The translations under genes were made by a program, and so were the position numbers. The notes beneath the pieces were generated by a model that had not been told where the DNA came from, searched no databases, and saw only the letters and a program-made list of their open reading frames with translations. From the NCBI GenBank assembly GCA_963693365.1, contig CAVNZM010000003.1:14230914-14294913 (forward strand): a DNA stretch of 64,000 bases. Reading direction: 5' to 3'. This stretch comes from Amoebidium appalachense. Its lineage: Eukaryota > Protista > Ichthyosporea. Shown in pieces: positions 13,126 to 46,072 of this stretch. Each line of letters starts with the position of its first letter. Position 1 is the first letter of the stretch.

Positions 13126-13156
<31 letters not shown>

Positions 13157-14511: not shown

Positions 14512-14552
<41 letters not shown>

Positions 14553-16780: not shown

Positions 16781-16824
<44 letters not shown>

Positions 16825-17353: not shown

Positions 17354-17385
<32 letters not shown>

Positions 17386-17867: not shown

Positions 17868-19125
17868 ATGAGCGATTCGCCAGCAGACGCGCAACAAAAG
17901 GTAGTTGTTGAGTAAAAATTGATGAGTTGGTCGTGAAAATCCAAAATGGCCTGAACATTTCGACTCTTTCAATTCCTCTCGGTACAACAAGCCCTCTTCA
18001 GTTTGTTTCAACAACACCTGATCAAGTCGGCAGGCCAAATCGCCAACTTGGGTTTCAAGCCCCCACCCCCGCTAGGGCCTCCCCGCCGGCCTCTCACCCG
18101 CTTGTACCAGAAAACCGCGTCATCACACCCGCCGTTGCTCGCCAGCTCATCACGGACATCGGCGCAGACAAATGGCTGTCGTGCCTCTGTGTCCGGGCTC
18201 CCCAGGTCGAGGGCGTTACCGTGCAGCGGGAACCGTCGAGTTTTGGACAATGCGTAGGGTACAGTGCACCCCCTCACAACGCCACTCAGTGCAAGAAGAA
18301 AGCAACGGAGGAAGGTGGTCTGTGTGTGCTGCACCAGGCACAACTTGGGACCGGAGGAGGCTATGGCCAGGTTCACATTGGTCCCCTCTTTCCCCATCTC
18401 TCCTACTCACACACATTGTCACCCTGACGAGCAGACATCTTTGTGCCTGGATACTCACACTCTAGCTCCCCACAGTCTTGCACCTCACCTCTGTCTCTTG
18501 TTTCTTCGCATATACCCCCCCTCGCCCCCACCAGCTTTCCTCCGCCCCTCCCCCCCTCCCCCTTCCCCCCTTACACGGTCTGAACCCGAGTTGTCTTTCT
18601 GACGTTTCTCCCACTCTCATCTTGCTCCCCCCCCCCCCCCCCCCCGCCTAAACCTCCCCCCCCCCCCCCCCCCGTCCCCAACCAATACTTCCCCTTCCCT
18701 CCTCTCCTCTCACTTCTCCTGGGCCATCCCCTCTTCCCCCCTACACACACACCCTCCCCCTTCCCCCCCCCCCCCCCCTCCCCCCTTCCCCCCCCCCCCC
18801 CCCCTGGGCCCCTCCTGCACACACTCAGGTTCACAAATGCAAGAAGTTCTTGTGCGCAAACCTGGTCACCTGCTGCGAAGGGTACTGTGTGTCCCATACA
18901 GTTCACTTCCATCTTGAGCGCAACGGTGAGACACCCCCCCCTCCCCCCCCCCCCCCCCCATCCCCCCCCCCCCCCCCTCCCCCGCCCTTCCTTCCCCAGT
19001 CCCCCGCTCGCCCCCCACCGCCCCCTCACCCCACTAGCCTGCGGTTTAAACCAACCGGCCTTTGAACAGGAGTGTGGCCTCATGTTTGTTACTTCTTAGT
19101 GTTCTTTTGCTAACCCCCAGGATCC

Positions 19126-19158
<33 letters not shown>

Positions 19159-19303
19159 GCCCCTCATCAGCCACATACATTCCTTCCCCATGCTCTGCTT
19201 GCACCCCCCCCCCCCCCCCCCCCTAAACCTGCCGTCCCCTTCCCCACCCCCCCCCCCCCCACCACGCACACACGGACACGCACACGCGTGCACACTTACA
19301 CAC

Positions 19304-19351
<48 letters not shown>

Positions 19352-19466
19352 ACATACACACACACAAACACCACACACACACACACACATACACACACAC
19401 ACACATGCACACACACATGCAGGTTCTCAGATAGTTCACTCGCCTGCGGCAGCATCTTCAAGTTAA
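17868..19466 (+). CDS. Small 4-exon protein (~180 aa) with two Cys/His putative zinc-binding motifs
   Basis: Exons 17868-17900, 18002-18370, 18829-18925 and 19423-19466 (all GT-AG, 543 nt, in frame). Motifs [29 protein letters not shown] and [20 protein letters not shown]. Confidence 0.65.
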
Positions 19467-20131
19467 CGAAGCCACCACCAAGCTACTAGGGACTGCCGTT
19501 AATTTAGTAATAAAAGAAAGTGATAAAAAAACCTTGAGTCCGGGTCCTTAACCCCCCCCCCCCCCCCCCCCCCCCCCATCCTTTTGCATACATGAATATG
19601 CAGGCTGAATGTACATGTACACGGTAGTTGTACTACTGGAATATACCATCTTCTTCATATTCATTAGCATTCATATTCATATTCAATATTATCTGAGATG
19701 TGCCCAGCTACTATCCATGTATGTTCACGAAGAGTATGGGGTTAGTACACATGAGTACCATATGGACACTATGCGGTGCAATGGAATACATAGTGTATAG
19801 GTGATATTCAGAGGGTATTCATAGGATATTGTGTGGTACCAGTGACTGTTCAGTATGAGTATTTGGGTTGGTATACTATACGTGTTCATAGTGTGTTACA
19901 AGAATACAATCGAATACGCGTTGCGTGGGTACTACTTGAATGTTCGTCATTAGGTATTCACATATATTCCGCATGTGTTCCATATGTGTTCGTCTGACAT
20001 TCATAAGGCATTCATGAATACATGGTGCCCGTTAGTGTTCATTGGAATGCCATACACGTGTACGAGTGTATCATTTAATGTTCTGGCTGAATATTCATGG
20101 TCGCGTTTTGGACAGTATATTCCAATAATAT

Positions 20132-20398
20132 TCAAGTACACCCCGGGGGGGTTTGCTGATGGGCGGCCAGGACGGCGTCTTGAGAAGTCATCTGCGGGGA
20201 CGGCGGGGCCTGAGGGGGGACTTCAGGAGTGGAGGGGAGAGTAGCCGGCGGGTCCGGGTCCGTGGTGGTATGGGCCGCTGGAGGCGCGTCAGTGTCCGCG
20301 GGAGCGTTGGTCAGCCTGTGGCGGAGGTCGCTGCGGGTCAGGCGCTTAGGTGCCGCGGCAGGGGCGGCTGCTGAGGCCTGGCGCTTTTTCGGCGGCAT
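20132..20398 (-). CDS. Short Pro/Ala-rich ORF or first exon starting MPPKKRQ (NLS-like)
   Basis: GC-rich island in AT-richer context with ATG at 20398: MPPKKRQASAAAPAAAPKRLTRSDLRHRL. No downstream exons identified. Confidence 0.4.
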   Translation of the reverse strand: MPPKKRQASAAAPAAAPKRLTRSDLRHRLTNAPADTDAPPAAHTTTDPDPPATLPSTPEVPPQAPPSPQMTSQDAVLAAHQQTPPGCT

Positions 20399-20532
20399 GC
20401 TGACCGGCGTAGGGAAAGATAGGGAGAATGAAAAGGAATATATAGCTGTAAGGCTGTGGATGCTAAACACAGAAGATGTGTTTGTAGCTTGCTGATCTGC
20501 TAAAAACTGTCGTGCTTATATACCTAAGCCTA

Positions 20533-20625
20533 CCGATCTGAGCCAATCAAAAATCGATCTAGTGATATGTGAAATCTGATCCGAGCCAATCATAACTCGG
20601 TCTAGTGATCTGTGGTATCTGATGT
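20533..20625. promoter_or_regulatory. Duplicated ~45-bp CCAAT-containing element between two divergent genes
   Basis: gagccaatca....tc.(a/g)tctagtgat.tgtg..atctgat occurs twice, between the 20398 (-) start and the MTase-like gene (+). Confidence 0.35.
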
Positions 20626-20959
20626 TTTGACTGGCTAATAGGTGCCCGTGTGCGGGCAGCCAACCGCTAACTGCTAAAACACGAAATGAAGCCTACATGG
20701 TTATGTTGGTATCGAACACCCATCCTACGTGTTTACCCAGAAAAATATTTATGTCAATAATTTCCACAAATAAAACCCGTACGTACCATTTTCATTTTAT
20801 CTCTCCACTCTCCCTCCCTCCCTTGCCTGCTAGACTTGAGCCCCACCCATATTCCCTTTCCTCCTCCCCCCATGCATTGGGACGTCCCTGAGGATGGGCT
20901 CTACTCATGCTTCCTACTTGCGTTTGTGCATCACTTAAAAGTTTGTCCATTGCGAATCT

Positions 20960-21044
20960 GTGCTTCGTGACTGTGTACCGCATTCTAAACCCCCCCCCCC
21001 CACCCCCCTCCCCCCCCTGGAACCCTTTTCCTTTCCGTTTGCCC

Positions 21045-21075
<31 letters not shown>

Positions 21076-21149
21076 ACACTATCAACACGGGTGTCCCAGC
21101 TGTCCTCTTGTGCATTTCTCCCATCTTGTCTTTCCACATGTGTTCAGTT

Positions 21150-21181
<32 letters not shown>

Positions 21182-22340
21182 CCCCGTCCTCCCAGTCCCC
21201 CTTCCGTTTTCCTTCCTCCAACCTCCCCCCACCCCTATCACCACATGTGTCCCAGTGTTCTCTTGTGCATTTCTCCTATCTTGTCATTCCACACGTGTTC
21301 TCCCCCCCCCCCCCCCCCCTTTTGTCCTCCGGAACCCCGTCCTCCTTCAAGCTTCCTTCCTCGCCCATCGTCCCTTCCCCGTCCCCCCCCCCCCCCCCCC
21401 CCCCTTCCCTTTTAGTCCACTCTCTTCCGTATATTCACACTTCCTGCTTCTTCCTTTCTCCCCCCCCCCCCCCCCCCTCCCCTCCCCCCCCCCCCCCACA
21501 CACACACACACATTCACACACTCTCCCCCTAACGGGTCTCCTTCCAGTTTTCTTCACCCCCTCTCCCCCCCCCCCCCCCCCCCATCCTCTACAGCTCTAT
21601 GTGTGCTGCATGAGTTGTCACGTGTTCATCACGCTGTTTGTTGTCTGATTGTGTTTCGTGACTGGGTACCACATCCCCCCCCCCCCCCCCCCCCCACCAC
21701 CACACCCCAACCCCCTACCCCCCCCCCCCCACACACACACACACTATCAACACGGGTGTCCCAGCTGTCCTCTTGTGCATTTCTCCCATCTTGTCTTTCC
21801 ACATGTGTTCCTCCCCCCCCCCCCCCCCCCCCCCCCCCCGTCCTCCCAGTCCCCCTTCCGGTTTCCTTCCTCCCCCCTCCCCCCCACCCCTATCACCACG
21901 TGTATCCCAGCTGTTCTCTTGTGCATTTCTCCTATCTTGTCCTTCCACACGTGTTCTCCCCCCCCCCCCCCCCTTGTCCTCCGGGACCCCGTCCTCCTTC
22001 AAGCTTCCTTCCTCGCCCGTCGTCCCTTCCCCCGTCCCCCCCCCCCCCCCCTCCCCCTTCCCTTTCAGTCCACTCTCTTCCGTACATTCACACTTCCTGC
22101 TTCTTCCTTCCCCCCCCCCCCCCCCTCCCCCCTCCCCTCCCCCCCCCCACACACACACACATTCACACACTCCCCCCTCCCGGGTCTCCTTCCAGTTTCC
22201 TTCACCCCCCTCTCCTCCCCCCCCCCCCCCCCATCCTCTACAGCTCTATGTGTGCTGCATGAGTTGTCACGTGTTCATCACGCTGTTTGTTGTCAGATTG
22301 TGTTTCGTGACTGGGTACCACATCCCCCCCCCCCCCCCCC
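20960..22340. repeat. ~690-bp C-rich tandem duplication inside the first intron of the MTase-like gene
   Basis: actatcaacacgggtgtcccagctgtcc at ~21078 and ~21742; acagctctatgtgtgctgcatgag at ~21591 and ~22240. Confidence 0.85.
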
Positions 22341-22584
22341 CCCCTCTCCCCCCAACCCTCCCCCAACCCTCCCATCCACACACCGCAATATAGGCTAAGC
22401 CTTACATTTCCCCTTTCTCCTTGATAGGGTGGCTTCCCGTACGTGCGCATCGACGCCCCATCAAGCATCGAAGCTGGGGACAACGGATGGGGAGACGGGT
22501 CCAACGTGCCCTTCACAAATGAAAACTACAAGACAATCCTGACCAAGTATGTTATTTTGATATTATCCCACTGAAATCGTTATC

Positions 22585-22619
<35 letters not shown>

Positions 22620-22873
22620 ACAAGGCTCCCCTTTTGTGATCCCGCTTGAAGTTCCCAACAAATTTGCAACGTCTACCTTAGCAGCATCGTTGAGCCCCCC
22701 CCCCCCCCCCCCCCCCCCTTTCCGGGTGTGCGCATGGATCCTTCATGCCCCCACCTACCCTCCCTTGGCAACCCTGATGTCCTCACACACACACACACAC
22801 ACACACTGTCCGACGGGTACACTCACTATTGGGCACACACACACACACACACACACACTTCTATGACCCCCCC

Positions 22874-22904
<31 letters not shown>

Positions 22905-23334
22905 ATTTTTATTCTGCGGCCTTCCGGACAATGTGTAAGCGTTAGGTTTACCCGGGGTTGTTTTCAGGTTACAAGTTATAGGCTGCATTGTTGTGACTGT
23001 TCCAGTGTGTGGGTTAATCATGTCTACCCCCCCCCCCCCTATGTATGATGCATGATGATGGCATTGCATTTTTCTTTGTGGCTCGACAGGAAGTTGATTG
23101 GTGGGGTTCAATTCCACACTGACACACGAAATTTTAACTGTTGCACACACATAGTGGTTTCCCACTTACACACTCGTTGCATCCCATCACAGCCTGAAAA
23201 AATGGAACGAGACGCTCGGCCGCAGCGAATTTGTACTGGTTGCCTCCTTCTTTGGCCCAGTCGACTACGCGCAATTCGTTTTATTGATGTCGGAGCTCGG
23301 ACACGCCATGGACGACTACATGTATTGTCCATCC

Positions 23335-24414
23335 TGTTGGAAGTAGAGTCCGCTGTGACTAGGGTCGTCGTGGCGCGCTTGGGCGCTGACCCGTTTTTTA
23401 CTGCTTTCAGTGTGTTAACTCCATGACTGAACTCCATGACTGAACTCCATGACTGAACTCCATGACTGAACTCCATGACTGAACTCCATGTCTGCACCTG
23501 GCAGAGCCGTGGCTTATATACCCGTGGGGCAGCAGTCTGGAATGTAATCCGGATGCCAGGCGCTAATCGGATTGGTTACTTTCATTTAGATATCTCTGGG
23601 ACCAGTGAACCAATCGTTTGCAGTCAAAACACAATTGGCAACATTCCTCAACTATGCAGATGTGCATGTGGTGATCGAGTGTCAGCGTGTGTCTGTGTAC
23701 ACGGAACCAATTGTAAAGCTAACATACACATATTGTGGAGTGAGCGTAAGTCTGCACTCCAACACCCCTACCCAATTGGAGAAGTGTACACACCACTAGA
23801 GAAGAGAGAGTGAGTGTGGCTACTTGCAGGGTAGACCGGGGTGTGCATTCCACTGTGGTGCTTGCCCCGCCAATGAAGTGGAATACTTGACGTTGATGTC
23901 GCAGGCTGCTGCGGATGGAGTTTGTGGAAGCGAAAGTCTCTAATGAAGTTAGAGGCCGCGGTGTCGTGTCTGGGCCCATAACCCTGTTGGAAGTAGAGTC
24001 CGCTGTGACTAGGGTCGTCGTGGCGCGCTTGGGCGCTGACCCGTTTTTTACTGCTTTCAGTGTGTTAACTCCATGACTGAACTCCATGACTGAACTCCAT
24101 GACTGAACTCCATGACTGAACTCCATGACTGAACTCCATGTCTGCACCTGGCAGAGCCGTGGCTTATATACCCGTGGGGCAGCAGTCTGGAATGTAATCC
24201 GGATGCCAGGCGCTAATCGGATTGGTTACTTTCATTTAGATATCTCTGGGACCAGTGAACCAATCGTTTGCAGTCAAAACACAATTGGCAACATTCCTCA
24301 ACTATGCAGATGTGCATGTGGTGATCGAGTGTCAGCGTGTGTCTGTGTACACGGAACCAATTGTAAAGCTAACATACACATATTGTGGAGTGAGCGTAAG
24401 TCTGCACTCCAACA
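23335..24414 (-). mobile_element. TRIM (miniature non-autonomous LTR retrotransposon)
   Basis: Two apparently identical 430-bp LTRs (23335-23764, 23985-24414) with TGTTGGA...TCCAACA ends and a 220-bp non-coding interior. Minus-strand PBS GGTTATGGGCCCA next to the 5' LTR and purine-rich TGGGTAGGGG before the 3' LTR. 5-bp TSD CATCC at 23330-23334 and 24415-24419. Each LTR has a 13-bp internal tandem repeat ACTCCATGACTGA. Confidence 0.93.
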
Positions 24415-24848
24415 CATCCACCAAGGGCAGCAGCACCACTCACCTCAAGAAGCCGGACGGACCGGGCCGCTATGTCCTCGCTGTGCACATCACCCCCCAC
24501 AAGAATCACCGACCAAGCGGGTTCTTTTTTGCTGAGCCCGAGGAGGACAAATCAAGTTGGTTGGCGCAGGCACATTACCCGCGTGGTGACATTACGCAGA
24601 GAATGGGGATCGATTACTTGCGGGATGGTGAAAAGAACATCATTTGCCCCCAACAGGTAAACCCCCCCCACCCCTCCCCGCTTCTCCCCCTCCCCGCTTC
24701 TCCCCCCCCCCCCCCCCCTCCCGAGGCCGCCAGGCGCTACTGCCACTCCCACCCTATCTCTTCTCTGGCCCCATTATTCTCCTGTCACAAACACGCGCAC
24801 GATCTGTTTCATGTGCACCCACGTGCACGGCACTGGCGCTTTCCTGTT

Positions 24849-25520
24849 ACACTGCTGCAGCTGTTCAACAGTTATGGTGTAGGGCATGTACACAAAGTTA
24901 GCCACAAACACTATTCACGACTGCTAGCATGCACGAACACTGCTGCAGCTGTTCAACAGTTATGGTGTAGGGCATGTACACAAAGTTAGCCACAAACACT
25001 ATTCACGACTGCTAGCATGCACGGTGACTGAGTCTGTGTGTCCTTGTACATAACGTGAATGTTTGGCATGCACAGTCTGTGTTTCTCTGTGCACAACGTG
25101 AAAGTTACATGTCAGATATGTGTATTGTGTGTGTGCGTGTTTGTGTTTGTGCACGCGCAGGGTTGCTTATGTGCACAGTCACTACTACACTGACCTACAG
25201 GGCCTCTCATGATTTTAGCACGTGATTAGACCTCTCATGATTTTAGCACGTGATTTCCAATCCCCAGACTGTTTGATTTATTTTAGAATTTGGATCGAAA
25301 TTGTGTAATGATGTCATTTCATATGTATTTTTCAACTAGATTCGAATAGGTCGAGTCCAAACTAGATGTGTGGATGTCTAACAAAGACTAGACACTTGTG
25401 ATTTATTTTGGAAATGGGTTCGAAATTGTGTAATGATGTCATTTCATATGTATTTTTCAACTAGAATCGAATAGGTCGAGTCAAAGCTAGATGTGTGGCT
25501 GTCTAACAGAGACTAGACAT
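24849..25520. repeat. Three consecutive local tandem duplications (~88, ~29 and ~126 bp) in an MTase intron
   Basis: acactgctgcagctgttcaacag... x2 (24849/24937); cctctcatgattttagcacgtgatt x2; tcgaaattgtgtaatgatgtcatttcatatg... x2. Confidence 0.85.
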
Positions 25521-25891
25521 TTGAACTCTCTCTCCTGCCTCTTTAACTCAAAGAAAGTCAATCCTTTCCATTTCTTAAGTTGTTTTTATGAATCTTTGAG
25601 TCTTTCATTCCCTTTCTTTCTTGACTTCTTTTTTTCTAAGCTTGAACCATAATTAAGGACTGAATCCGGGTTTTTTTTTGCAGAAACCTGTTAACATGGA
25701 GAGAGCACTCATCCGTCGCTACTGCCCCCCAAACGGGCACGTTCTGTCGCTATGTTGTGGCACCGGCATGGTGGTTGAGGCTGCGGCAATGGAGCGCCAC
25801 AGTGTGATTGGTTTCGACACGGACGCTGCTCTGTGTGAGAAGGTGACCAAGGAGCGCATGCCAAGCGCTGAGCTACACAGCCAAGTGTATC

Positions 25892-26645
25892 TGTTGTTCT
25901 GTACGGGTCTAAGGGAGCAGAGTGCACAGAGGTGTCATGTAAAAACACGACTAACACATTAATGAGAGGGCAATCGGAGTTGTTCACGAGACATTGAAAG
26001 ATTTCAAACAACAACTGAATCTTTATTGTGCTCTCGGTTCCTTTTGTACTTGCGACTTATCACCTTATCACAACTAAAGAGGGAGAACCAATCGGTTCTA
26101 TCAGAAGATAGAAAAACACATTCCGACAGAGCATACGCATTCCAACTTCCGATTAAACTAAAGTGTAGAAACTCTTACTTAAATAAATTAAGTAATTATA
26201 CATCTAGTCACTATTAACTCACATATATATTTATGTTCGTCTCTATAAAGAAACTTATTTAAATACATATATTTCCTAACAGTCGACACTCTCAAAGTGA
26301 AGACACTTTGCAATAAACCGAATTCCATATATATCTATTGTCCAATCACAACACACATATATTAACAGACAGGAATGCACAACACAATCTACAGATGTAC
26401 TCGCTCGCGACTATTGGCGAGCCATCCTTTTGAGAACAAACTAGGCCATTTTGAAATAAAGGAAAGACAACGAGTGAGGCTAGCCAATCACGCTACCTCT
26501 CAGATAAACAGAGGAGAGCAACTAGAAATAAAACACAATAAGTTCTTATCAGGCAAGAGAGCCAGGTGTGCACAGATCTACAGATATCTGTGCCCACAGA
26601 AACAAGGGAGAGAGAGATACGGGGGGGGGGGGGGGGGGGGGGGGG

Positions 26646-26676
<31 letters not shown>

Positions 26677-26813
26677 GGGGAGAGAGAGGGAGAGAGAGAG
26701 AGAGAGGGAGAGAGAGAGAGCACAAAGGAGGAAAGCAGACACGAATACAAACAAGCTAGGACACATACATACTTCAAGGCTCTTGCTGTCATACATGGTG
26801 ACGTATTCCAACA
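25892..26813 (-). repeat. 3' LTR (~920 bp) of the copia element
   Basis: Near-identical to 35691-36607; contains poly-G and (GA)n tracts. Confidence 0.95.
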
Positions 26814-27531
26814 TCCCCACTCAAGGGGTTGAAGTTTGTGTTCTCGTGTCTGTTGATGTGACGGTAGATGGGGTCCAAACACAGGAGGGGCCGTCACACT
26901 CAAGTTTCCCCACTCGAGGATGCAAACCGAAGATCCTTGAGGTGGGAAGGAGAGAATCAAAACTGAAGAGGCACACAACGACGGTTGCCTCTGAAGACTC
27001 GAAATAAGAAATCATGGTGGTTATCGGCGATATATATATATAGATAGGAAACACTAGTGTATGTGTGACGTGTTGGTGGCTAATGGTTTATACTGGGGAC
27101 CACCCAGGTAAACACAAGACATGAACATCTTGTGGACTGATTTATAGACTGGTGGTCAACCAGTTAAGACACGGGGAAGGTGCATCCCGTGGACTAGGTT
27201 TAGACTGGCAGTCAACCAGCACGTCATGGCTATAGATAATTATTTATACTGGGACGCCATCCCAGTTCGACATATATATAAGTCGAATATAGAAGAAAAC
27301 CAATATATATGGTGGGATATGAATATAAATAAACGACGGATGGTGGAGAATAATCCCCACTGAAGATGCACACATATGACGATGGAAGACTGAGTCCCCA
27401 CTGATGAAGAGAAACGATGAGGAGTAGTAGACTTTCGTTGGGAGGCATCTTGATCACCGTAGGTGTGTCAACTGCTGTCTAGGGCCCCAACCTACTCAGA
27501 AACCACTCGATGATGAACACCAGTGCACGGG

Positions 27532-29615
27532 TCAGTCACGGAGACTGAGGTTGGCACGGTGTGTGTCGTGGGCCGTACCAGCCAGAGGCTTGGTGAAGAT
27601 GTCGGCCAGGTTCTTCTTGGTGTCGATGTAGGTGACAGTGACGTCCCCACTGTTGATGTAGTCCTTTGTGTTGAAGTAACGAACGGCAATGTGCTTGGTC
27701 CGGTGCTTGATGGTGTTGGAGTGGACCAGAGCAATGGTGGACTGATTGTCACAGTACACGGGGGTGGGCTCGGTCATGGGGTAGCCCAGCTCCTTTAGTA
27801 GATCACGGTGCCAGACAACATCTTGCACGGCAGCATTGAGGGCCAGGAGCTCGGCCTCACACGTGGAGGTTGCAGTGATCGTCTGCAGCTTGGAGTGGTA
27901 GGTGACGGGGGAGCCTTCGAGGAGGATGACGTACCCAGACGTGGAACGACGGGTGGTGGGGCAACCAGCAAAGTCAGAATCCGAGTAGCACTCAAGGATG
28001 GGCACCTTGCTGTTGGGGGCCTTCTTCTTGTAGTAGAGGCCGAGGTTGATGGTGCCGAGCAGGTAACGAACGACACGGAGGAGAAGCTCCCAGGCAGTCT
28101 TGGTGGGCTTGGAGCTGAATCGGCCGAGGTAGCCAATGGCATACGAGATGTCAGGCCGGGAGCACCGAGCAACCCACAGCAGACGGCCGAGGAGTTCACG
28201 GTAGGGGACGGTGGTGGGCAGGGATGAGTGGGAGGTCTCGTTGATGATGGTGCCCACGGGAATAGGGGGGGCCTTAGGCTTGGCATCGACCAGGTTGAAG
28301 TCGGTGATGATGTCCTCGATGTAGGAGGACTGCAGCAGCTTGAGGGAGTCACGGGTGTACAGCAGTTGGGTGCCGAGGAAGATGTCTGGCAGACCGACCT
28401 TGCACTCGGCAGACTTCGTGATGTGACGAACAAGCCCCTGCATGATGGTGGAGTTCCGTGTGCAGGTGATGATGGCATCATCAACGTAGTTGCCCGAACG
28501 GATGATGTGCCCGTTGGGGAACTGACGGAAGTAGACACACGGATCGGAACGGAGACGGGTGAGGCCGTGGGCAATGAGAATGGAGTTGAAGAACTCGTAC
28601 CATGCCAGGGATGCCTTCTTGAGTCCGTAGATGGCCTTCTTGAGTTTCCAGACTTTGTGTTCATTGCCATGGAGGATAAAACCAGGAGGTTGCTCCATGT
28701 ACAAAGTCTCGTCGAGGGGGCTGTTGAGGAAGGCCGTGCTGATGTCGAGTTGATGGATCTCGTGGTCCTGTTGCACACCGAGGGCAAGCAGGGCACGGAC
28801 GGAGGAGGACATGACGACGGGGGAAGAGTTTTCACCGTAGTCAACACCGTAGACTTGGGTGAAACCCTTGGCCACACCACGACCCTTGATCTTGGTGTCA
28901 CCAGCAGAGTTGAGGACCTTCTCCGTGACAATCCACTTGAATCGGATGATGTTGGCATCGGAGGGGGGCTCAACTACGTCGAAGATGTCCTTGTCGATGA
29001 AAGCCTTGTACTCGGCAGTGAGGGCAGTCACCACTTCATCACCCTTGGTGCCAGAGCACAGCTTCTGAATTGACCGGGGCAGCTGAGACACATCAAGGCT
29101 GGGTCGGGAGATGCTCACCATAGCCATAGCAGGCCGGGAGGAGAGACGGGAGGAACGACGGGGAACGGTACGGAGGGGCTCAGGGGCCGGGGGGTTGTCT
29201 GTGACAGACACTCGGTGGTCGGGGATGGGGGCCTGGAAGCCAGGGATGGGTGCCGTGTTGAGGGGGGAGTCGGATAACACGGGGCTGGACGGGGCCGAGT
29301 GGAACTCCGGAGACCCAGGACGAACCGGGGTGAGATGACCAGGTAGGTGGTCATTGACGGCAGGGGCCGGCAGCAGGGGTTGCTGACCGGTGGGGGGGGG
29401 GGTGGGTGGAGCCACGGGGGCAGGTACACGACGGGGGGAACGACGGATAATCACCGACGGAATTTCATCGTCATCGGAATTGGAATTTCCGGAATGCAGG
29501 GATGAATCGATTGAGGTCGTCTGATTGGTGGCCTGCACAGAAATCTGATTGGATGCCGTGGTGAATTGTGATTCGTCGAAGACGACATCGCGGTAGAGGT
29601 TGACCGTGTTGCCAC
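27532..29615 (-). pseudogene. pol: Duplicated 3' part of pol (RT + RNase H), open frame but 5'-truncated
   Basis: HQLDISTAFLN, KKAIYGLK, YVDD, YSDSDFAG, YCDNQS, RTKHI, NLADIFTKPL; offset 3618 bp from the copy at 31150. Confidence 0.92.
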
Positions 29616-30260
29616 AAAGATTTCAAACAACAACTGAATCTTTATTGTGCTCTCGGTTCCTTTTGTACTTGCGACTTATCACCTTATCACAACTAAAGAG
29701 GGAGAACCAATCGGTTCTATCAGAAGATAGAAAAACACATTCCGACAGAGCATACGCATTCCAACTTCCGATTAAACTAAAGTGTAGAAACTCTTACTTA
29801 AATAAATTAAGTAATTATACATCTAGTCACTATTAACTCACATATATATTTATGTTCGTCTCTATAAAGAAACTTATTTAAATACATATATTTCCTAACA
29901 GTCGACACTCTCAAAGTGAAGACACTTTGCAATAAACCGAATTCCATATATATCTATTGTCCAATCACAACACACATATATTAACAGACAGGAATGCACA
30001 ACACAATCTACAGATGTACTCGCTCGCGACTATTGGCGAGCCATCCTTTTGAGAACAAACTAGGCCATTTTGAAATAAAGGAAAGACAACGAGTGAGGCT
30101 AGCCAATCACGCTACCTCTCAGATAAACAGAGGAGAGCAACTAGAAATAAAACACAATAAGTTCTTATCAGGCAAGAGAGCCAGGTGTGCACAGATCTAC
30201 AGATATCTGTGCCCACAGAAACAAGGGAGAGAGAGATACGGGGGGGGGGGGGGGGGGGGG

Positions 30261-30293
<33 letters not shown>

Positions 30294-31149
30294 GGGGGAG
30301 AGAGAGGGAGAGAGAGAGAGAGAGGGAGAGAGAGAGAGCACAAAGGAGGAAAGCAGACACGAATACAAACAAGCTAGGACACATACATACTTCAAGGCTC
30401 TTGCTGTCATACATGGTGACGTATTCCAACATCCCCACTCAAGGGGTTGAAGTTTGTGTTCTCGTGTCTGTTGATGTGACGGTAGATGGGGTCCAAACAC
30501 AGGAGGGGCCGTCACACTCAAGTTTCCCCACTCGAGGATGCAAACCGAAGATCCTTGAGGTGGGAAGGAGAGAATCAAAACTGAAGAGGCACACAACGAC
30601 GGTTGCCTCTGAAGACTCGAAATAAGAAATCATGGTGGTTATCGGCGATATATATATATAGATAGGAAACACTAGTGTATGTGTGACGTGTTGGTGGCTA
30701 ATGGTTTATACTGGGGACCACCCAGGTAAACACAAGACATGAACATCTTGTGGACTGATTTATAGACTGGTGGTCAACCAGTTAAGACACGGGGAAGGTG
30801 CATCCCGTGGACTAGGTTTAGACTGGCAGTCAACCAGCACGTCATGGCTATAGATAATTATTTATACTGGGACGCCATCCCAGTTCGACATATATATAAG
30901 TCGAATATAGAAGAAAACCAATATATATGGTGGGATATGAATATAAATAAACGACGGATGGTGGAGAATAATCCCCACTGAAGATGCACACATATGACGA
31001 TGGAAGACTGAGTCCCCACTGATGAAGAGAAACGATGAGGAGTAGTAGACTTTCGTTGGGAGGCATCTTGATCACCGTAGGTGTGTCAACTGCTGTCTAG
31101 GGCCCCAACCTACTCAGAAACCACTCGATGATGAACACCAGTGCACGGG

Positions 31150-34100
31150 TCAGTCACGGAGACTGAGGTTGGCACGGTGTGTGTCGTGGGCCGTACCAGC
31201 CAGAGGCTTGGTGAAGATGTCGGCCAGGTTCTTCTTGGTGTCGATGTAGGTGACAGTGACGTCCCCACTGTTGATGTAGTCCTTTGTGTTGAAGTAACGA
31301 ACGGCAATGTGCTTGGTCCGGTGCTTGATGGTGTTGGAGTGGACCAGAGCAATGGTGGACTGATTGTCACAGTACACGGGGGGTGGGCTCGGTCATGGGG
31401 TAGCCCAGCTCCTTTAGTAGATCACGGTGCCAGACAACATCTTGCACGGCAGCATTGAGGGCCAGGAGCTCGGCCTCACACGTGGAGGTTGCAGTGATCG
31501 TCTGCAGCTTGGAGTGGTAGGTGACGGGGGAGCCTTCGAGGAGGATGACGTACCCAGACGTGGAACGACGGGTGGTGGGGCAACCAGCAAAGTCAGAATC
31601 CGAGTAGCACTCAAGGATGGGCACCTTGCTGTTGGGGGCCTTCTTCTTGTAGTAGAGGCCGAGGTTGATGGTGCCGAGCAGGTAACGAACGACACGGAGG
31701 AGAAGCTCCCAGGCAGTCTTGGTGGGCTTGGAGCTGAATCGGCCGAGGTAGCCAATGGCATACGAGATGTCAGGCCGGGAGCACCGAGCAACCCACAGCA
31801 GACGGCCGAGGAGTTCACGGTAGGGGACGGTGGTGGGCAGGGATGAGTGGGAGGTCTCGTTGATGATGGTGCCCACGGGAATAGGGGGGGCCTTAGGCTT
31901 GGCATCGACCAGGTTGAAGTCGGTGATGATGTCCTCGATGTAGGAGGACTGCAGCAGCTTGAGGGAGTCACGGGTGTACAGCAGTTGGGTGCCGAGGAAG
32001 ATGTCTGGCAGACCGACCTTGCACTCGGCAGACTTCGTGATGTGACGAACAAGCCCCTGCATGATGGTGGAGTTCCGTGTGCAGGTGATGATGGCATCAT
32101 CAACGTAGTTGCCCGAACGGATGATGTGCCCGTTGGGGAACTGACGGAAGTAGACACACGGATCGGAACGGAGACGGGTGAGGCCGTGGGCAATGAGAAT
32201 GGAGTTGAAGAACTCGTACCATGCCAGGGATGCCTTCTTGAGTCCGTAGATGGCCTTCTTGAGTTTCCAGACTTTGTGTTCATTGCCATGGAGGATAAAA
32301 CCAGGAGGTTGCTCCATGTACAAAGTCTCGTCGAGGGGGCTGTTGAGGAAGGCCGTGCTGATGTCGAGTTGATGGATCTCGTGGTCCTGTTGCACACCGA
32401 GGGCAAGCAGGGCACGGACGGAGGAGGACATGACGACGGGGGAAGAGTTTTCACCGTAGTCAACACCGTAGACTTGGGTGAAACCCTTGGCCACACCACG
32501 ACCCTTGATCTTGGTGTCACCAGCAGAGTTGAGGACCTTCTCCGTGACAATCCACTTGAATCGGATGATGTTGGCATCGGAGGGGGGCTCAACTACGTCG
32601 AAGATGTCCTTGTCGATGAAAGCCTTGTACTCGGCAGTGAGGGCAGTCACCACTTCATCACCCTTGGTGCCAGAGCACAGCTTCTGAATTGACCGGGGCA
32701 GCTGAGACACATCAAGGCTGGGTCGGGAGATGCTCACCATAGCCATAGCAGGCCGGGAGGAGAGACGGGAGGAACGACGGGGAACGGTACGGAGGGGCTC
32801 AGGGGCCGGGGGGTTGTCTGTGACAGACACTCGGTGGTCGGGGATGGGGGCCTGGAAGCCAGGGATGGGTGCCGTGTTGAGGGGGGAGTCGGATAACACG
32901 GGGCTGGACGGGGCCGAGTGGAACTCCGGAGACCCAGGACGAACCGGGGTGAGATGACCAGGTAGGTGGTCATTGACGGCAGGGGCCGGCAGCAGGGGTT
33001 GCTGACCGGTGGGGGGGGGGTGGGTGGAGCCACGGGGGCAGGTACACGACGGGGGGAACGACGGATAATCACCGACGGAATTTCATCGTCATCGGAATTG
33101 GAATTTCCGGAATGCAGGGATGAATCGATTGAGGTCGTCTGATTGGTGGCCTGCACAGAAATCTGATTGGATGCCGTGGTGAATTGTGATTCGTCGAAGA
33201 CGACATCGCGGTAGAGGTTGACCGTGTTGCCACGTAGATTCATGATCTTGTGGGCTTTGTTGGTGATATCCCAGCCCACGTAGGTGCCGAGTTTGACGGT
33301 AGAGGCCAACTTGTCTCGTTTGGATGCAGGGACGTGTACATAGGCTGGGCAGCCGAACACGTGCAGGTGGGAGATGTCAGGCTTGACACCGTAGAAAATT
33401 TCAAACGGTGTACGGCCATTGGCAGCTCTGGCCGGGGTCACGTTGATGATGTAGGCAGCATGCTTGAGAGCAGCTCCCCACAGTTTGGGGGAAAGGGAGT
33501 CGGCCTTGTCCTGATGAAGGAAGCACCGAACGATCTCCTGCAGATCCCTCATCTTACGTTCAACGAAGCCGTTGAGTTGGGGGCAGTCAACCGGGGCAAA
33601 TTCTTGAATGATGCCCTTGGACTGGCAGTACTGCTCCATAGCGTGGGAGGTGAACTCGGACCCAGAGTCTGAACGGAAGTGGGTCACCACCTTGTCGGGT
33701 TGCTTGTCAGTAGTCTCAACCAGGGCCTTGACGTATTCGAGAGTTTCGGATCGATCACGGAGGAGGTACACGATGGTGTAGCCGGAGGCATCACAGGTAC
33801 ACACGAGGGCCACCTTGTAGCCACCATAGGAGGCACAGGGAGGCTCGAAGAAGTCCATGTGCCACTTGGCACCGGGGAAGGGGCACTGGGTTCTGGTGCC
33901 GGAGAATGGGGCCTTGGTGGTCTTGCCGGAGACACAACCGAAGCAGTCAGTGGTGTCAGCCACTGAGAGGGATGAGGGGAGGCCTGTCACGAGGTCACCT
34001 CTCACCATCTTGGTGAGGGTGGACAGGGCACGATGGCCGAGACGGTGGTGCCAGAGCTGAGGATCATTGTTGACCTTGACGTTGGCTACCAGAGCAGTGA

Positions 34101-35571
34101 CGGTCCGAGGGATGGAGGGACGTATCTCATAGTCAGTGATGAAGTACAGTCCATCTGTGCCTGTGAGGGAACACACGATGTTGCCACCACGAGTGTAGAG
34201 GTATGATGGGAATGCATCCTCATCATCGAGGTGGGCAAGGAGACCCGACTTGGAGGCCATTGAGGGTGATATCAGGAAGGCTGGGGAGTCGGGTACATAG
34301 AGGGTGTTGAGGCTCAGTACTGATGTTACTCCGTTGTAGGTGACGGCCAGGTTGATGACACCACGGTGATGTGCAGTGACGATGCCGAGGCCGTGGACGT
34401 CAGTTGGGGGGCATGGCTCAAGAGTAGAGAAGTACTCTTTTACTGGGCACACGTGGACGTTTGAAGCCGAGTCCCAGCAGGGGTCCATGGGTAGGGAGGC
34501 CGTGGTGGACACGAGGGCAAAATGCACCTCTTTTCCAGACTTGGTGTTGGCACGGTGACGACGGGCAATTGAGCAGCCAGGTTTGTCACACTGTGTGACA
34601 TGATGGTCTTCGTGACAGTAGGCACAGTCGAGGGAGCCAGTGGTCTTGGCTCGGGGTGGCTGGGAATGACGGTTACCCCCTTTACGTGGGGGGTAGGGTG
34701 ACCGGGAACGATAGCCGGGGGAACGGGACCGTGAGTAATCACGGTCAACTGAGGGGAATCGATCGGTGGGACGACCGCGGGGGTGACGGGAGACGGAGCT
34801 GTCACGTCGGGGGATCCGGTGTCTGAGGTCGTCCTTGGTGAGTAGACGGCTTTGCAGGGCACGTGCTGTTCGGACGGTGGAGGAGGACCCGGACCCAGAG
34901 TCGATGAGACCTTCACGGATCTCTGCAGCTCTGATGTCACTCATTAGACGGTTGTAGGTCTCGTAGTTAATGGTACGACGGAAGTAGTCGGCAATCATGG
35001 CCTGGATGTCGGTACAAACTAACTTACGGTTCTTCTTGAGGTGGATGAAGAAGTTATCCACCATAGTCTTGTGAGGAATGGGCTCTTCGAGGATGTGCAG
35101 GGTAGTGCACAGACGGCGTGCCATGGTGAGGTAGGCCGTGACGGTCTTGAAGTCTTTGAGTTCAAGCTCATGGTAGTCGAGGAGGATTTGACGAGCACGA
35201 TCTTCACGTTCAGCCGCATAGGTCATACGGAGGTTGTGGAAAGCTTGGGCAGGTGACACATCATCGTGGATTTGACCAGAGTTATACAGCTCATCATTGG
35301 AGACGAGTTGAGTAAACATCTGTTCAAGGAGGTTGGAAGCCTCGGTGTAGGCCTCCTCAGTGTCGTAGCCGTGCCACTCATTCTCGTCGGAAGGGTCGAC
35401 CCACTCGGGGGCCTTGATGACGGGCACGAACTTGGCCGCGGTGGTGGTACGTAGGTACCGGAAGATGACGGGTTCCCACTGATAATAGGTGAGACGTTTG
35501 CCGGACTTCTTGTCCGTGGTGTCATCCCCTTTCCAGGGGGTGAGGTTGAGATACGCAGGTTTCTCCGACAT
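31150..35571 (-). CDS. gag-pol: Copia Gag-Pol polyprotein (Gag-PR-INT-RT-RH) with two homopolymer frameshifts (~33010, ~31380)
   Basis: Zinc knuckle CAYCHEDHHVTQC; protease WDSASNVH; LWHHRLGH...CFGC; integrase WHMDF / RSDSGSEF / NGFVER; RT YVDD; RNase H. INT precedes RT, the copia order. Confidence 0.93.
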
Positions 35572-35690
35572 GGTGATCAATCAGTCAGATGATGCGTGAG
35601 AGAGGAATCAGATCGGTATTCAAATTTGAATATTTTTGATTGCAGCGAGAGTATGTGTTTGCGAGAGCGTGCGAAAATGGGCCTTTAACC

Positions 35691-36607
35691 TGTTGTTCTG
35701 TACGGGTCTAAGGGAGCAGAGTGCACAGAGGTGTCATGTAAAAACACGACTAACACATTAATGAGAGGGCAATCGGAGTTGTTCACGAGACATTGAAAGA
35801 TTTCAAACAACAACTGAATCTTTATTGTGCTCTCGGTTCCTTTTGTACTTGCGACTTATCACCTTATCACAACTAAAGAGGGAGAACCAATCGGTTCTAT
35901 CAGAAGATAGAAAAACACATTCCGACAGAGCATACGCATTCCAACTTCCGATTAAACTAAAGTGTAGAAACTCTTACTTAAATAAATTAAGTAATTATAC
36001 ATCTAGTCACTATTAACTCACATATATATTTATGTTCGTCTCTATAAAGAAACTTATTTAAATACATATATTTCCTAACAGTCGACACTCTCAAAGTGAA
36101 GACACTTTGCAATAAACCGAATTCCATATATATCTATTGTCCAATCACAACACACATATATTAACAGACAGGAATGCACAACACAATCTACAGATGTACT
36201 CGCTCGCGACTATTGGCGAGCCATCCTTTTGAGAACAAACTAGGCCATTTTGAAATAAAGGAAAGACAACGAGTGAGGCTAGCCAATCACGCTACCTCTC
36301 AGATAAACAGAGGAGAGCAAATAGAAATAAAACACAATAAGTTCTTATCAGGCAAGAGAGCCAGGTGTGCACAGATCTACAGATATCTGTGCCCACAGAA
36401 ACAAGGGAGAGAGAGATACGGGGGGGGGGGGGGGGGGGAGAGAGAGAGAGAGAGAGAAAGAGAGGGAGAGAGAGAGAGAGAGGGAGAGAGAGAGAGAGAG
36501 GGAGAGAGAGAGAGCACAAAGGAGGAAAGCAGACACGAATACAAACAAGCTAGGACACATACATACTTCAAGGCTCTTGCTGTCATACATGGTAACGTAT
36601 TCCAACA
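35691..36607 (-). repeat. 5' LTR of the copia element
   Basis: Adjacent to the PBS and gag start; matches the 3' LTR. Confidence 0.95.
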
Positions 36608-38082
36608 GTATCATGCTGTCGTGGCGAAAAACGCGATAATATTGCTTCTGACTCAAGAGGCCGAGTCCGATCTTCGTGTACCCTCTGAAGAGGCCAAGCA
36701 GCTGGTCAACCGAATCGTGAAATTCGCAATGTCGGACGACGGGGTTTTCTTCGACTTCGGGGGTCCCAACACGGATGGAACATGGGGCAACATGACAAGT
36801 GAACGGAAGTTCAACGAAGCAATCCGTGTCAGCATCCTCGAGTACTGGAAACCTGGCAGTTTTAAGGGCCAGAAACGCGTCCGCGATCTAGACGACGATC
36901 CTTACTCGAGCTCTAAGCGGTCACGGGAGGACAAAGAAGCTGAGCTGTCAGGGGGGCCCAAGCCAATGGTCTTCGGATACTCTGCCATCGGGACCAGTAC
37001 CGCTGCTGACGCACTAGTCGCTGGCGGTTTGTTGGATGCTATGTCGCGCAAGAAGAAGAAGCCCAATCCGACATCTCTCCCGACTTCAGAATCGGGTGTG
37101 CAACCTGCCCAGCACCCAGCACCGGCATCACCCCCGACCAACCCGGCACCGATCCCGGCAGCGTCACCAGTACCGACACCTGCACCTGCACCAGCCGAGA
37201 CACCTGCCCAGAACTCGCCACTTTCGACCCAACAGCCAATTGCAGTAGCCGAAAATGGAGTCGACCAGAATCAGACTATTGAGCCCGACGATAATGATTT
37301 GCTCGAGCTCGTAGAGGAGGCCGAAACAAACTCCATCTAAGATTAAGCAGGATTGTTCTTTGTTGTTTTTGCGATTGCTCGTGTTTTCTTATGATTTAGT
37401 TTTTGGAATTTGCTGTGCTCTAATCTGTTAATGAAAACACAATTTTAGTCTATCATTACTAAACTGAGTGCCATACAAGATTCCATGTGGTCCACCGTCT
37501 TTTGAACTAGATGCCGATGAGTCTTTTTTTATCTAGATAAGTCCTTCAACTCTATCTCATTCGTCTACTCTGTATTTGAAAGTCAAATTATGATTACTAC
37601 TGGACGGCAGTATAATTGTATTATTGTGTACATGGACGGCTTACACAGTAAATTTCTTGACCGAGAATGATGAGTTATCCAACACTTTTTGTTCCTGACA
37701 AATAAAATCATAAGCAAACTTTGCAATGGTTTACACGACATACATTACCCCCCCCCCCCCCCCCATTTTTCCTCGTCTTTTCCCGCATCCCGGTCCCTTC
37801 CAGTCTTTTTAGTGTCAAATCATACACAGTGCCAAGAGCCGCTTTTCAGCAGGGCAACAAATCTGTATAAGTTTTGGTTATCATTGATCGGTGAGGCCAA
37901 CGTGATTTTGCTGATTCTTGAAGTGAAATAAGAAATTTTCAGTTCCTTAGAGTCCCGAAATCTAGTACACCACTCTAGCATATATAGTATTGCATACTTT
38001 TGCCCCGTACCAAAAAATAATGGGCAAAATCGAGGTTTTTGGTCAAAATCGAAGATACCCCAGAAATCGGAAGCAACCTCCT

Positions 38083-38564
38083 TAATGGTTTATACTGGGG
38101 ACCACCCAGGTAAACACAAGGCATGAACATCTTGTGGACTGATTTATAGACTGGTGGTCAACCAGTTAAGACACGGGGAAGGTGCATCCCGTGGACTAGG
38201 TTTAGACTGGCAGTTAACCAGCATGCCATGGCTATAGATAATTATTTATACTGGGACGCCATCCCAGTTCGACATATATATAAAGTCGAATATAGAAGAA
38301 AACCAATATATATGGTGGGATATGAATATAAATAAACGACGGATGGTGGAGAATAATCCCCACTGAAGATGCACACACATGACGATGTAAGACTGAGTCC
38401 CCACTGATGAAGAGAAACGATGAGGAGTAGTAGACATTCGTTGGGAGGCATCTTGAGCACCGTAGGTGTGTCAACTGCTGTCCAGGGCCCCAACCTACTC
38501 AGAAACCACTCGATGATGAACACCAGTGCACGGGGCAGTCACGGAGACTGTGGTTGGCACGGTG
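38083..38564 (-). mobile_element. Fragment of the same copia family (end of RNase H plus part of the 3' UTR)
   Basis: Matches ~27081-27562 with scattered substitutions; directly abuts the LTR at 38565. Confidence 0.9.
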
Positions 38565-38656
38565 TGTTGGAATACGTCACCATGTATGACAGCAAGAGCC
38601 TTGAAGTATGTATGTGTCCTAGCTTGTTTGTATTCGTGTCAGCTTTCCTTCTTTGT

Positions 38657-38726
<70 letters not shown>

Positions 38727-41700
38727 CCCCCCCCCCCCCCCCCCCCCGTATCTCTCTCTCCCTTGTTTCTGTGGGCACAGATATCTGTAGATCTGTGCAC
38801 ACCTGGCTCTCTTGCCTGATAAGAACTTATTGTATTTTATTTCTGTTTGCTCTCCTCTGTTTATCTGAGAGGTAGCGTGATTGGCTAGCCTCACTCGTTG
38901 TCTTTCCTTTATTTCAAAATGGCTTAGTTTTGTTCTCAATAGGATGGCTCGCCAATAGTCGCGAGCGAGTACATCTGTAGATCGTGTTGTGCATTCCTGT
39001 CTGTTAATATATGTGTGTTGTGATTGGACAATAGATATATATGGAATTCGGTTTATTGCAAAGTGTCTTCACTTTGAGAGTGTCGACTATTAGGAAATAT
39101 ATGTATTTAAATAAGTTTCTTTATAGAGACGAACATAAATATATATGTGAGTTAATAGTGACTAGATGTATAATTACTTAATTTATTTAAGTAAGAGTTT
39201 CTACACTTTAGTTTAATCGGAAGTTGGAATGCGTATGCTCTGTCGGAATGTGTTTTTCTATCTTCTGATAGAACCGATTGGTTCTCCCTCTTTAGTTGTG
39301 ATAAGGTGATAAGTCGCAAGTACAAAAGAAACCGAGAGCACAATAAAGAATCAGTTGTTGTTTGAAATCTTTCAATGTCTCGTGAACAACTCCGATTGCC
39401 CTCTCATTAATGTGTTAGTCGTGTTTTACATGACACCTCTGTGCACTCTGCTCCCTTAGACCCGTACAAAAACAACAGGTTATGGGCCCATTTTCGCACG
39501 TTCTCGCAACACATACTCTCGCTGCAATCGAAAATATTCAAATTTGAATACCGATCTGATTCCTCTCTCACGCATCATCTGACTGATTGATCACCATGTC
39601 GGAGAAACCTGCGTATCTCAACCTCACCCCCTGGAAAGGGGATGACACCACGGACAAGAAGTCCGGCAAACGTCTCACCTATTATGAGTGGGAACCCGTC
39701 ATCTTCAGGTACCTACGTACCACCACCGCGGCCAAGTTAGTGCCCGTCATCAAGGCCCCCGAGTGGGTCGACCCTTCCGACGAGAACGAGTGGCACGGCT
39801 ATGACACTGAGGAGGCCTACACCGAGGCTTCCAACTTCCTTGAACAGATGTTTACTCAACTCGTCTCCAATGATGAGCTGTATAACTCTGGTCAAATCCA
39901 CGATGATGTGTCACCTGCCCAAGCTTTCCGCAACCTCCGTATGACCTATGCGGCTGAACGTGAAGATCGTGCTCGTCAAATCCTCCTCGACTACCATGAG
40001 CTTGAACTCAAGGACTTCAAGACCGTCACGGCCTACCTCACCATGGCACGCCGTCTGTGCACTACCCTGCACATCCTCGAAGAGCCCATTCCTCACAAGA
40101 CTATGGTTGATAACTTCTTCATCCACCTCAAGAAGAACCGTAAGTTAGTTTGTACCGACATCCAGGCCATGATTGCCGACTACTTCCGTCGTACCATCAA
40201 CTACGAGACCTACAACCGTCTAATCAGTGACATCCGAGCTGCAGAGATCCGTGAAGGTCTCATCGACTCTGGGTCCGGGTCCTCCTCCACCATCCGAACA
40301 GCACGTGCCCTGCAAAGCCGTGTCCTCACCAAGGACCACCTCAGACACCGGATCCCCCGACGTGACAGCTCCGTCTCCCGTCACCCCCGTGGTCGTCCCA
40401 CCGATCGATCCCCCTCAGTTGACCGTGATTACTCCCGGTCCCGTTCCCCCGGCTATCGTTCCCGGTCACCCTACCCCCCACGTAAAGGGGGTAACCGTCA
40501 TTCCCAGACACCCCGAGCCAAGACCACTGGCTCCCTCGACTGTGCCTACTGTCACGAAGACCATCATGTCACACAGTGTGACAAACCTGGCTGCTCAATT
40601 GCCCGTCGTCACCGTGCCAGCACCAAGTCTGGAAAAGAGGTGCATTTTGCCCTCGTGTCCTCCACGGCCTCCCTACCCATGGACCCCTGCTGGGACTCGG
40701 CTTCCAACGTGCACGTGTGCCCAGTAAAGGAGTACTTCTCTACTCTTGAGCCATGCCCCCCAACTGACGTCCACGGCCTCGGCATCGTCACTGCACATCA
40801 CCGTGGTGTCATCAACCTGGCCGTCACCTACAACGGAGTAACATCAGTACTGAGCCTCAACACCCTCTACGTACCCGACTCCCCAGCCTTCCTGATTTCA
40901 CCCTCAATGGCCTCCAAGTCGGGTCTCCTTGCCCACCTCGATGATGAGGATGCATTCCCATCATACCTCTACACTCGTGGTGGCAACATCGTGTGTTCCC
41001 TCACAGGCACAGATGGACTGTACTTCATCACTGACTATGAGATACATCCCTCCATCCCTCGGACCGTCACTGCTCTGGTAGCCAACGTCAAGGTCAACAA
41101 TGATCCTCAGCTCTGGCACCACCGTCTCGGCCATCGTGCCCTGTCCACCCTCACCAAGATGGTGAGAGGTGACCTCGTGACAGGCCTCCCCTCATCCCTC
41201 TCAGTGGCTGACACCACTGACTGCTTCGGTTGTGTCTCCGGCAAGACCACCAAGGCCCCATTCTCCGGCACCAGAACCCAGTGCCCCTTCCCCGGTGCCA
41301 AGTGGCACATGGACTTCTTCGAGCCTCCCTGTGCCTCCTATGGTGGCTACAAGGTGGCCCTCGTGTGTACCTGTGATGCCTCCGGCTACACCATCGTGTA
41401 CCTCCTCCGTGATCGATCCGAAACTCTCGAATACGTCAAGGCCCTGGTTGAGACTACTGACAAGCAACCCGACAAGGTGGTGACCCACTTCCGTTCAGAC
41501 TCTGGGTCCGAGTTCACCTCCCATGCTATGGAGCAGTACTGTCAGTCCAAGGGCATCATTCAGGAATTAGCCCCGGTTGACTGCCCCCAACTCAACGGCT
41601 TTGTTGAACGTAAGATGAGGGATCTGCAAGAGATCGTTCGGTGCTTCCTTCATCAGGACAAGGCCGACTCCCTTTCCCCCAAGCTGGGGGGAGCTGCTCT

Positions 41701-44700: not shown

Positions 44701-44822
44701 GAACACAAACTTCAACCCCTTGAGTGGGGATGTTGGAATACGTCACCATGTATGACAGCAAGAGCCTTGAAGTATGTATGTGTCCTAGCTTGTTTGTATT
44801 CGTGTCTGCTTTCCTTCTTTGT

Positions 44823-44881
<59 letters not shown>

Positions 44882-46012: not shown

Positions 46013-46072
<60 letters not shown>

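Follow-up and report, generated by a model that had tools for sequence, protein, structure and literature searches.

A split DNA methyltransferase-like gene beside a Plavaka transposase in the ichthyosporean Amoebidium appalachense

The window analyzed here is a 64,000-nucleotide stretch of Amoebidium appalachense DNA (assembly GCA_963693365.1, contig CAVNZM010000003.1, positions 14,230,914 to 14,294,913 of the forward strand). It contains a Plavaka transposase gene and, downstream of it, a gene resembling prokaryote-type DNA amino-methyltransferases. The latter is a real spliced gene, disrupted in this copy by two young long terminal repeat (LTR) insertions, a terminal-repeat retrotransposon in miniature (TRIM) and a copia array (Table 1). 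Its S-adenosylmethionine (SAM)-binding segment is, as judged from the encoded sequence, clearly of the beta class. Removal of the TRIM, the copia array and three GT-AG introns (20941-22427, 22547-23192, and 24657-25683) leaves 500 codons with one final stop.

Table 1. Coordinates of the genes, coding pieces and insertions in the window
Feature	Position	Strand	Remarks
Spliced orphan gene, candidate accessory gene	1-2484	-	head to head with the transposase gene; runs off the window
Plavaka (CMCT) transposase gene	4825-15002	+	12 exons, 926 aa, free of internal stops
Small Cys/His-rich orphan gene with introns, possible second accessory gene	17869-19489	+	exon set partly solved
Short open reading frame (ORF) starting MPPKKR, candidate accessory gene	20135-20400	-	divergently oriented to the methyltransferase-like gene
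Methyltransferase-like gene, putative first coding exon	20872-20940	+	frame continues into the DAPS exon; weak GT donor (GTTTGT), least certain
Methyltransferase-like gene, DAPS exon	22428-22546	+	DAPS at 22452-22463, motif IV position in forced global alignments
Methyltransferase-like gene, 5' piece of TRIM-split exon	23193-23334	+	joined to 24415 in run X4
TRIM, 1,080 bp	23335-24414	-	LTRs TG..CA, target-site duplication CATCC on both sides, primer site of copia type
Methyltransferase-like gene, 3' piece of TRIM-split exon	24420-24656	+	ends ICPQQ (HPTQKP equivalent)
Methyltransferase-like gene, SAM-binding exon part	25684-25891	+	KP helix, motif I VLSLCCGTG, acidic GFDTD
Copia array	25892-36607	-	three LTR copies, 3.6-kb internal duplication, target-site duplication GTATC on both sides
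Methyltransferase-like gene, C-terminal extension	36613-37340	+	241 aa; ~100 residues that look ordered, with RKKKK and a tail rich in Pro and Ala

A first-pass annotation, made from the letters alone, had proposed that removal of the two retrotransposons fuses the reading frame, and that splicing then gives a protein of about 500 residues with a C-terminal extension of about 240 residues carrying RKKKK. All of this is borne out: both target-site duplications (TSDs) were verified, and excision of each insertion with one TSD copy preserves the frame. Within the reconstructed protein, DAPS stands at residue 32, CPQQKP (interrupted by the third intron) at 186, VLSLCCGTG at 209, GFDTD at 232, and RKKKK at 404. 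GC content is lowest at codon position 2 in all six coding pieces, and the last of them (241 codons) is stop-free in only 2 of 10,000 base shuffles. The second intron allows four in-frame splice options, among which the donor GTATGT at 22547 and the acceptor CAG preceding 23193 were chosen; because of these options and the weak donor of the first exon, the exact N-terminus is uncertain. No splice junctions were seen in RNA, where the two runs covered the TRIM only and are silent on expression of the gene. The first intron also contains a tandem duplication of ~670 bp (21044-22383).

The TRIM LTRs are identical over 430/430 bases, and the outer LTRs of the 10.7-kb copia array in 911 of 922 aligned columns. 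Primer and polypurine sites of copia type are present in both elements. The TRIM introduces a stop within the methyltransferase domain, which in this copy would abolish the protein, and the copia array sits behind the SAM-binding motifs, severing the C-terminal extension only. In the public DNA run X4, one contig joins 23329 to 24415, skipping 1,085 bases (the TRIM plus its TSD), with no other difference over 526 bases; the TRIM-free exon therefore exists as DNA. A contig of a second run, X3, which has no cover of the TRIM-split exon, contains an identical DAPS exon (22428-22546). Such run contigs demonstrate presence, not absence, and their read depths are not copy numbers.

The beta-class (PF01555) assignment made in the first pass is upheld for the SAM-binding segment. 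The exon at 25684 encodes 69 residues that match PF01555 over its positions 166-219 (E 5.4e-5; 23.7 bits, under the gathering cut-off of 26.7) and, from its first residue, the DNA methyltransferase family phrog_3008 of PHROG (E 1.7e-9). A profile of phage beta-class enzymes scores 37.7 bits against the same segment, and chains of M.BceJIV match it at E 0.005-0.007. The PF01555 and phrog_3008 matches begin at the KP helix, which stands ahead of motif I in permuted enzymes alone, and CPQQKP upstream of motif I carries the match into the preceding exon, as is typical of that class. The SAM-binding residues appear intact (G-T-G loop and acidic end of strand 2). Like M.BceJIV, M1.HpyAVI, CcrM, M.RsrI, M.PvuII, and M.MboIIA, the protein has, toward the C-terminal end of the domain, an HPTQKP-like element followed by a helix, motif I, and an acidic strand 2; it differs from these enzymes in lacking [DNS]PP[YFW], in ending strand 1 with Ser instead of Asp, in an unrecognizable N-terminal half, and in its introns. 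Word-index protein searches gave no relative of the SAM exon among 100 candidates or of the C-terminal tail among 172, and exon 24420-24656 had no usable match in the ESM Atlas.

Among 1.84 billion representatives, 18 matches were obtained: 12 beta-class-like segments, two ordinary class I enzymes (P0008 and P0010), and four instances of Cys-rich repeat noise (P0001-3 and P0012), the last six being dropped as relatives. In four of the 12 beta-class-like segments motif I reads S/V-x-C, and a profile of those four with the window exon recovered 20 proteins among 7,994 candidates. In an alignment of 18 of these (A2; P0006 and P0035 excluded), S-x-C-N-G is present in 18/18 rows and DPPF in 17, the remaining row being truncated. 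The divergent motif I, from which the first pass had suggested an inactive DNA binder or new chemistry, is probably a trait of this family, named here after P0009, rather than decay. Since the P0009 relatives keep DPPF and a structural model matches beta-class enzymes, such a motif I can evidently go together with a catalytic motif that is intact. The model of P0009 built on A2 (predicted local distance difference test score, pLDDT, 69.5; predicted template modeling score, pTM, 0.72) matches M.BceJIV in Foldseek at E 1e-11, as well as M1.HpyAVI, CcrM, M.RsrI, and N4CMT, and the Atlas agrees; a single-sequence model reached a pLDDT of only 33.

The window protein shares with the P0009 family the S-x-C motif I, an N/C-x-x-QK element and similar spacing, at ~40% identity over the SAM segment, and differs from it in that DPPF is kept there. 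In a tree of SAM segments (24 rows, all picked by likeness to the window protein, and 88 columns; 78 phage loci excluded), it groups with 14 S-x-C rows at a support of 90/91, below the starred level, which ties it tentatively to this DPPF-keeping family. The family members P0009 and P0022-P0039 come from ENA and Logan assemblies, one cluster counting 44 members, and the family was not found in the prokaryote genomes or viral contigs searched. Viral related-locus scans (0/3, 1/3, 1/157, and 0/1 matches), metagenome scans (0/49 and 0/23), and prokaryote genomes (0/2) yielded no relative of either the family or the window protein; the two viral matches are a C5-type enzyme (L001, in the scan with 1/3) and an ordinary phage beta enzyme (L002, 1/157). 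Several relatives diverge abruptly past a shared point resembling a splice donor, and P0006 has, in our reading, a PHD-like cysteine pattern. Because of these features and the absence from prokaryote and viral searches, the family is possibly eukaryotic; it may also be mobile. No SET domain match was obtained on ten long relatives.

The transposase adjoins the methyltransferase-like gene as first proposed, ending 5.9 kb upstream of it. PF18759 matches three of its exons at 5973-7209 (E 1e-7 to 9e-12), and the D, D, C(2)C, H, and E motifs follow in order at residues 295, 399, 420, 498, and 669 (motif definition from PMC12730594, residue roles assigned by position). The open frame requires one non-canonical GA-donor intron at 9637 (exon end AAG, intron start GAAAGT). 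Position, strand, dispensability, and precedent together suggest that the methyltransferase-like gene is rather probably Plavaka cargo; two insertions were tolerated, as one would expect if the gene is dispensable. The precedent is found in the red alga Bostrychia moritziana, where Plavaka families of 17-19 kb have three accessory genes, one of which, PAG2, combines PF01555 with a SET domain (bioRxiv 10.1101/2025.02.11.637652).

The catalytic motif [DNSH]PP[YFW] is absent from all 500 residues, and a scan of 20400-25900 for a hidden exon encoding it returned only poly-C intron noise. Two independent profiles (the P0009 family, and 65 of the 78 phage beta loci, selected for having the motif) were used for forced global alignments; on both, YVRIDAPS falls on the DPP[YF] column, and DAPS lies at the same distance from motif I as in the P0009 family. 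DAPS is identical in run X3 and so is no assembly error. Amino-methyltransferases stack the target base with an aromatic residue of motif IV (PMC4738411), and replacement of SPPY by APPA kills the bdelloid enzyme N4CMT (PMC8885841); since the stacking aromatic is absent here, a weak or dead enzyme is likelier. The interpretation put forward, tentatively, as quite possible and as the likeliest of the four considered, is that the gene is a Plavaka accessory gene whose product would be a catalytically weak or dead pseudo-enzyme binding DNA and SAM. A prokaryote-derived beta-class enzyme would have entered a eukaryotic mobile element, would then have acquired introns and a nuclear-type tail, and would have lost the base-stacking aromatic residue as DPP[YF] became DAPS. 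The protein, made with the transposase, would bind the element's own DNA, as accessory factors of VANDAL or DIRS type do; once bound, it would shield the element from host 5-methylcytosine silencing or aid transposition without writing a mark.

Several observations speak against this interpretation. The N-terminal half scores 0.7 bits in local HMMER, a value matched by 35/1,000 shuffles, and its global z score against the P0009 profile is 1.9 (reached by 42/1,000 shuffles), ranging from 2.0 to 2.9 across the four splice options. Adding exon 20872-20940 does not raise the score (z 1.1, reached by 291 of 2,000 shuffles). Against the phage profile z is 1.0 (149/1,000 shuffles), next to 1.15 for a negative control, and four family members reach 3.9-7.1 with 0/300 shuffles each. 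The N-terminal half is thus not above chance against either profile, and the reading of DAPS as motif IV is a guess from its position. The beta-class motif pattern and order claimed in the first pass stand for the HPTQKP-like element followed by motif I; for the N-terminal half as the putative catalytic half, the global alignments fit the permuted order at weak scores (z 1.0-2.9), and IDAPS is at most a candidate motif IV. The boundaries of a Plavaka element are similarly elusive: termini of the form TGT..ACA or CATCA..TGATG with a 2-3 bp TSD gave 10 weak pairs (9-10 matches), none convincing. The gene is known from a single locus, and the run contigs, which prove presence only, contain one version of the exons and no diverged paralog at >=80% identity. 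Moreover, the giant Plavaka repeats reported from Amoebidium are intron-poor tandem clusters with tyrosine recombinases (PMC11244446), unlike this locus. The idea of cargo in a giant Plavaka element is supported as far as the adjacent open transposase goes; placement inside the element is presumptive, and neither terminal inverted repeats (TIRs) with a TSD nor a second copy were found. The left end may lie beyond the window, and on the right the flank meets a copia cluster, itself truncated, at 38083. Chance is taken to account for a 14-bp inverted match (3088/37371) and for ten short TIR candidates. Depletion of CGC/GCG was rejected as a marker of element extent, the observed/expected ratio in non-coding DNA being near 1 across the window; in coding DNA it is 0.80 for the gene, 0.78 for the transposase, and 0.06-0.10 for copia.

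The missing ends and the single sequence version would also fit a laterally acquired host gene, orphan or domesticated, located near the Plavaka transposase only because the region is rich in mobile elements. The poly-C introns are of host type, and the window has a type B polymerase and copia clusters as well, so that neighbors of mixed kinds occur. Such an origin is nevertheless rather unlikely in view of the two recent disruptive insertions, the open transposase close by on the same strand with only orphan genes between, and the published precedent for exactly this pairing in red-algal Plavaka.

It is improbable that the gene is Plavaka cargo encoding an active writer of N6-methyladenine (6mA) or N4-methylcytosine (4mC), with DAPS helped by a residue elsewhere, or with sister copies keeping DPP[YF] and decay confined to the present lineage of copies. 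The intact-looking SAM-binding residues would suit such an enzyme, as would the nearest family, in which DPPF coexists with S-x-C and the predicted fold resembles M.BceJIV, M1.HpyAVI, and CcrM, and eukaryotic permuted clades with unusual strand-4 motifs have been described (PMC4738411); on the other side are the missing stacking aromatic, the confirmed DAPS sequence, and an N-terminal half that has drifted far from all active profiles. A wider reading, distinctly improbable, would see in the P0009 family, and perhaps PAG2, an unrecognized widespread clade of eukaryotic transposon-borne S-x-C beta-class methyltransferases, turned here into a DAPS pseudo-enzyme or to new chemistry and shielding Plavaka from CG methylation; if true, this would be a transposon-encoded anti-silencing system of 6mA/4mC type in a relative of animals. 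Finally, a chimera in which only the C-terminal SAM segment is beta-class, the N-terminal exons being unrelated and the product chimeric or a non-DNA methyltransferase-like protein, would agree with the chance-level N-terminal half and with matches of the SAM exon alone to general class I models (NCBIfam CpaM, E 8e-7; small-molecule and protein methyltransferases as top PDB matches), but is very unlikely given that an element like CPQQKP ahead of motif I is peculiar to permuted enzymes, that the match reaches the preceding exon, and that the DAPS-to-motif I spacing is that of the family.

As regards known systems, the Plavaka accessory gene interpretation has its closest counterpart in red-algal PAG2, likewise a PF01555 gene among accessory genes beside a Plavaka transposase, which also travels with Zisupton and Fanzor elements (bioRxiv 10.1101/2025.02.11.637652). 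An amino-methyltransferase as Plavaka cargo is therefore not the novelty that it was first thought to be. PAG2 has a SET domain, whereas no exon of the window gene has a SET match; compared by description only, the window gene further differs in its unrelated 241-residue tail and in lacking the canonical catalytic motif. Bdelloid N4CMT (PMC8885841) and Marchantia DN4MT1 (bioRxiv 10.1101/2021.02.12.428880) are likewise prokaryote-type amino-methyltransferases in eukaryotes, the former also sharing PF01555, the permuted order, and gained introns. Both, however, are active host enzymes marking transposons (N4CMT with SPPY and a chromodomain), whereas the window gene, which lacks the motif, has a transposase as its neighbor. 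Further examples of eukaryotic mobile elements with DNA-modifying or pseudo-enzyme cargo are the TET/JBP genes of fungal Plavaka (PMC12730594) and the DIRS1-borne N6A-methyltransferase domains, described as likely inactive (PMC4738411); unlike the window gene, TET/JBP is a dioxygenase, and the DIRS1 domain is unpermuted, PCIF1-like and located in a retrotransposon. In Amoebidium, 6mA is found at gene 5' ends (PMC12695648), and the available part of that report does not mention such cargo.

The literature searched on Plavaka and amino-methyltransferases holds no description of this gene or of an intron-bearing version without SET. What is new is a form with introns and no SET domain, the loss of the catalytic motif, a host other than a red alga, and the tentative tie to the metagenomic P0009 family. 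As far as the available literature shows, Plavaka amino-methyltransferase cargo has been reported from red algae only, without a published assay; a SET-less, intron-bearing version in another lineage, of which a TRIM-free form exists in a second sample, would extend this range and offer a testable anti-silencing candidate. If the gene is merely a decaying orphan, its value is limited to annotation and the P0009 family lead.

The neighboring candidate accessory genes are without recognized family. The orphan gene at the left edge of the window has an acidic first exon and helical later exons and matches no family; the Cys/His-rich gene has no Pfam or PHROG match, and the MPPKKR frame, separated from the methyltransferase-like gene by two CCAAT-box repeats (20535-20620), has no Pfam match. 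Downstream of the transposase, an AT-rich stretch has a 35-bp hairpin that looks perfect (15868-15902), and an intergenic tandem duplication of ~570 bp (16388-17661) lies between it and the methyltransferase-like gene. Two transposase introns contain arrays of a 177-bp unit, 3.9 inverted copies at 7627-8318 and 13.9 forward copies at 10393-12864, and 7627-8749 is an inverted copy of 9965-11085, exon end included. These arrays recall the inverted tandem arrays of red-algal Plavaka, whose giant elements share tandem and inverted repeat arrays with this locus.

Elsewhere in the window, 38083-50113 is occupied by another cluster of the copia family seen in the array, oppositely oriented, which starts without an LTR and contains a 1,288-codon frame and several partial copies. 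The copia frames 39587-43450 and 32734-35580 are extremely poor in CGC/GCG (8 seen versus ~125 expected), which suggests long exposure to trinucleotide-specific CG methylation; the host appears to methylate CGC/GCG heavily. A protein-primed type B DNA polymerase (PF03175; 54339-57985, minus strand) in two reading frames is Polinton- or adintovirus-like, and no other viral gene was seen. The combination of CGC/GCG-depleted copia, type B polymerase, and Plavaka resembles what has been reported for Amoebidium (PMC11244446). A small MITE-like element (miniature inverted-repeat transposable element) at 3211-3452 has imperfect inverted ends and a CAAGCCCGA core. A perfect 27-bp inverted repeat (59012-59038/61168-61194) encloses ~2.2 kb with a coiled-coil-like ORF of 181 codons, a possible non-autonomous DNA transposon.

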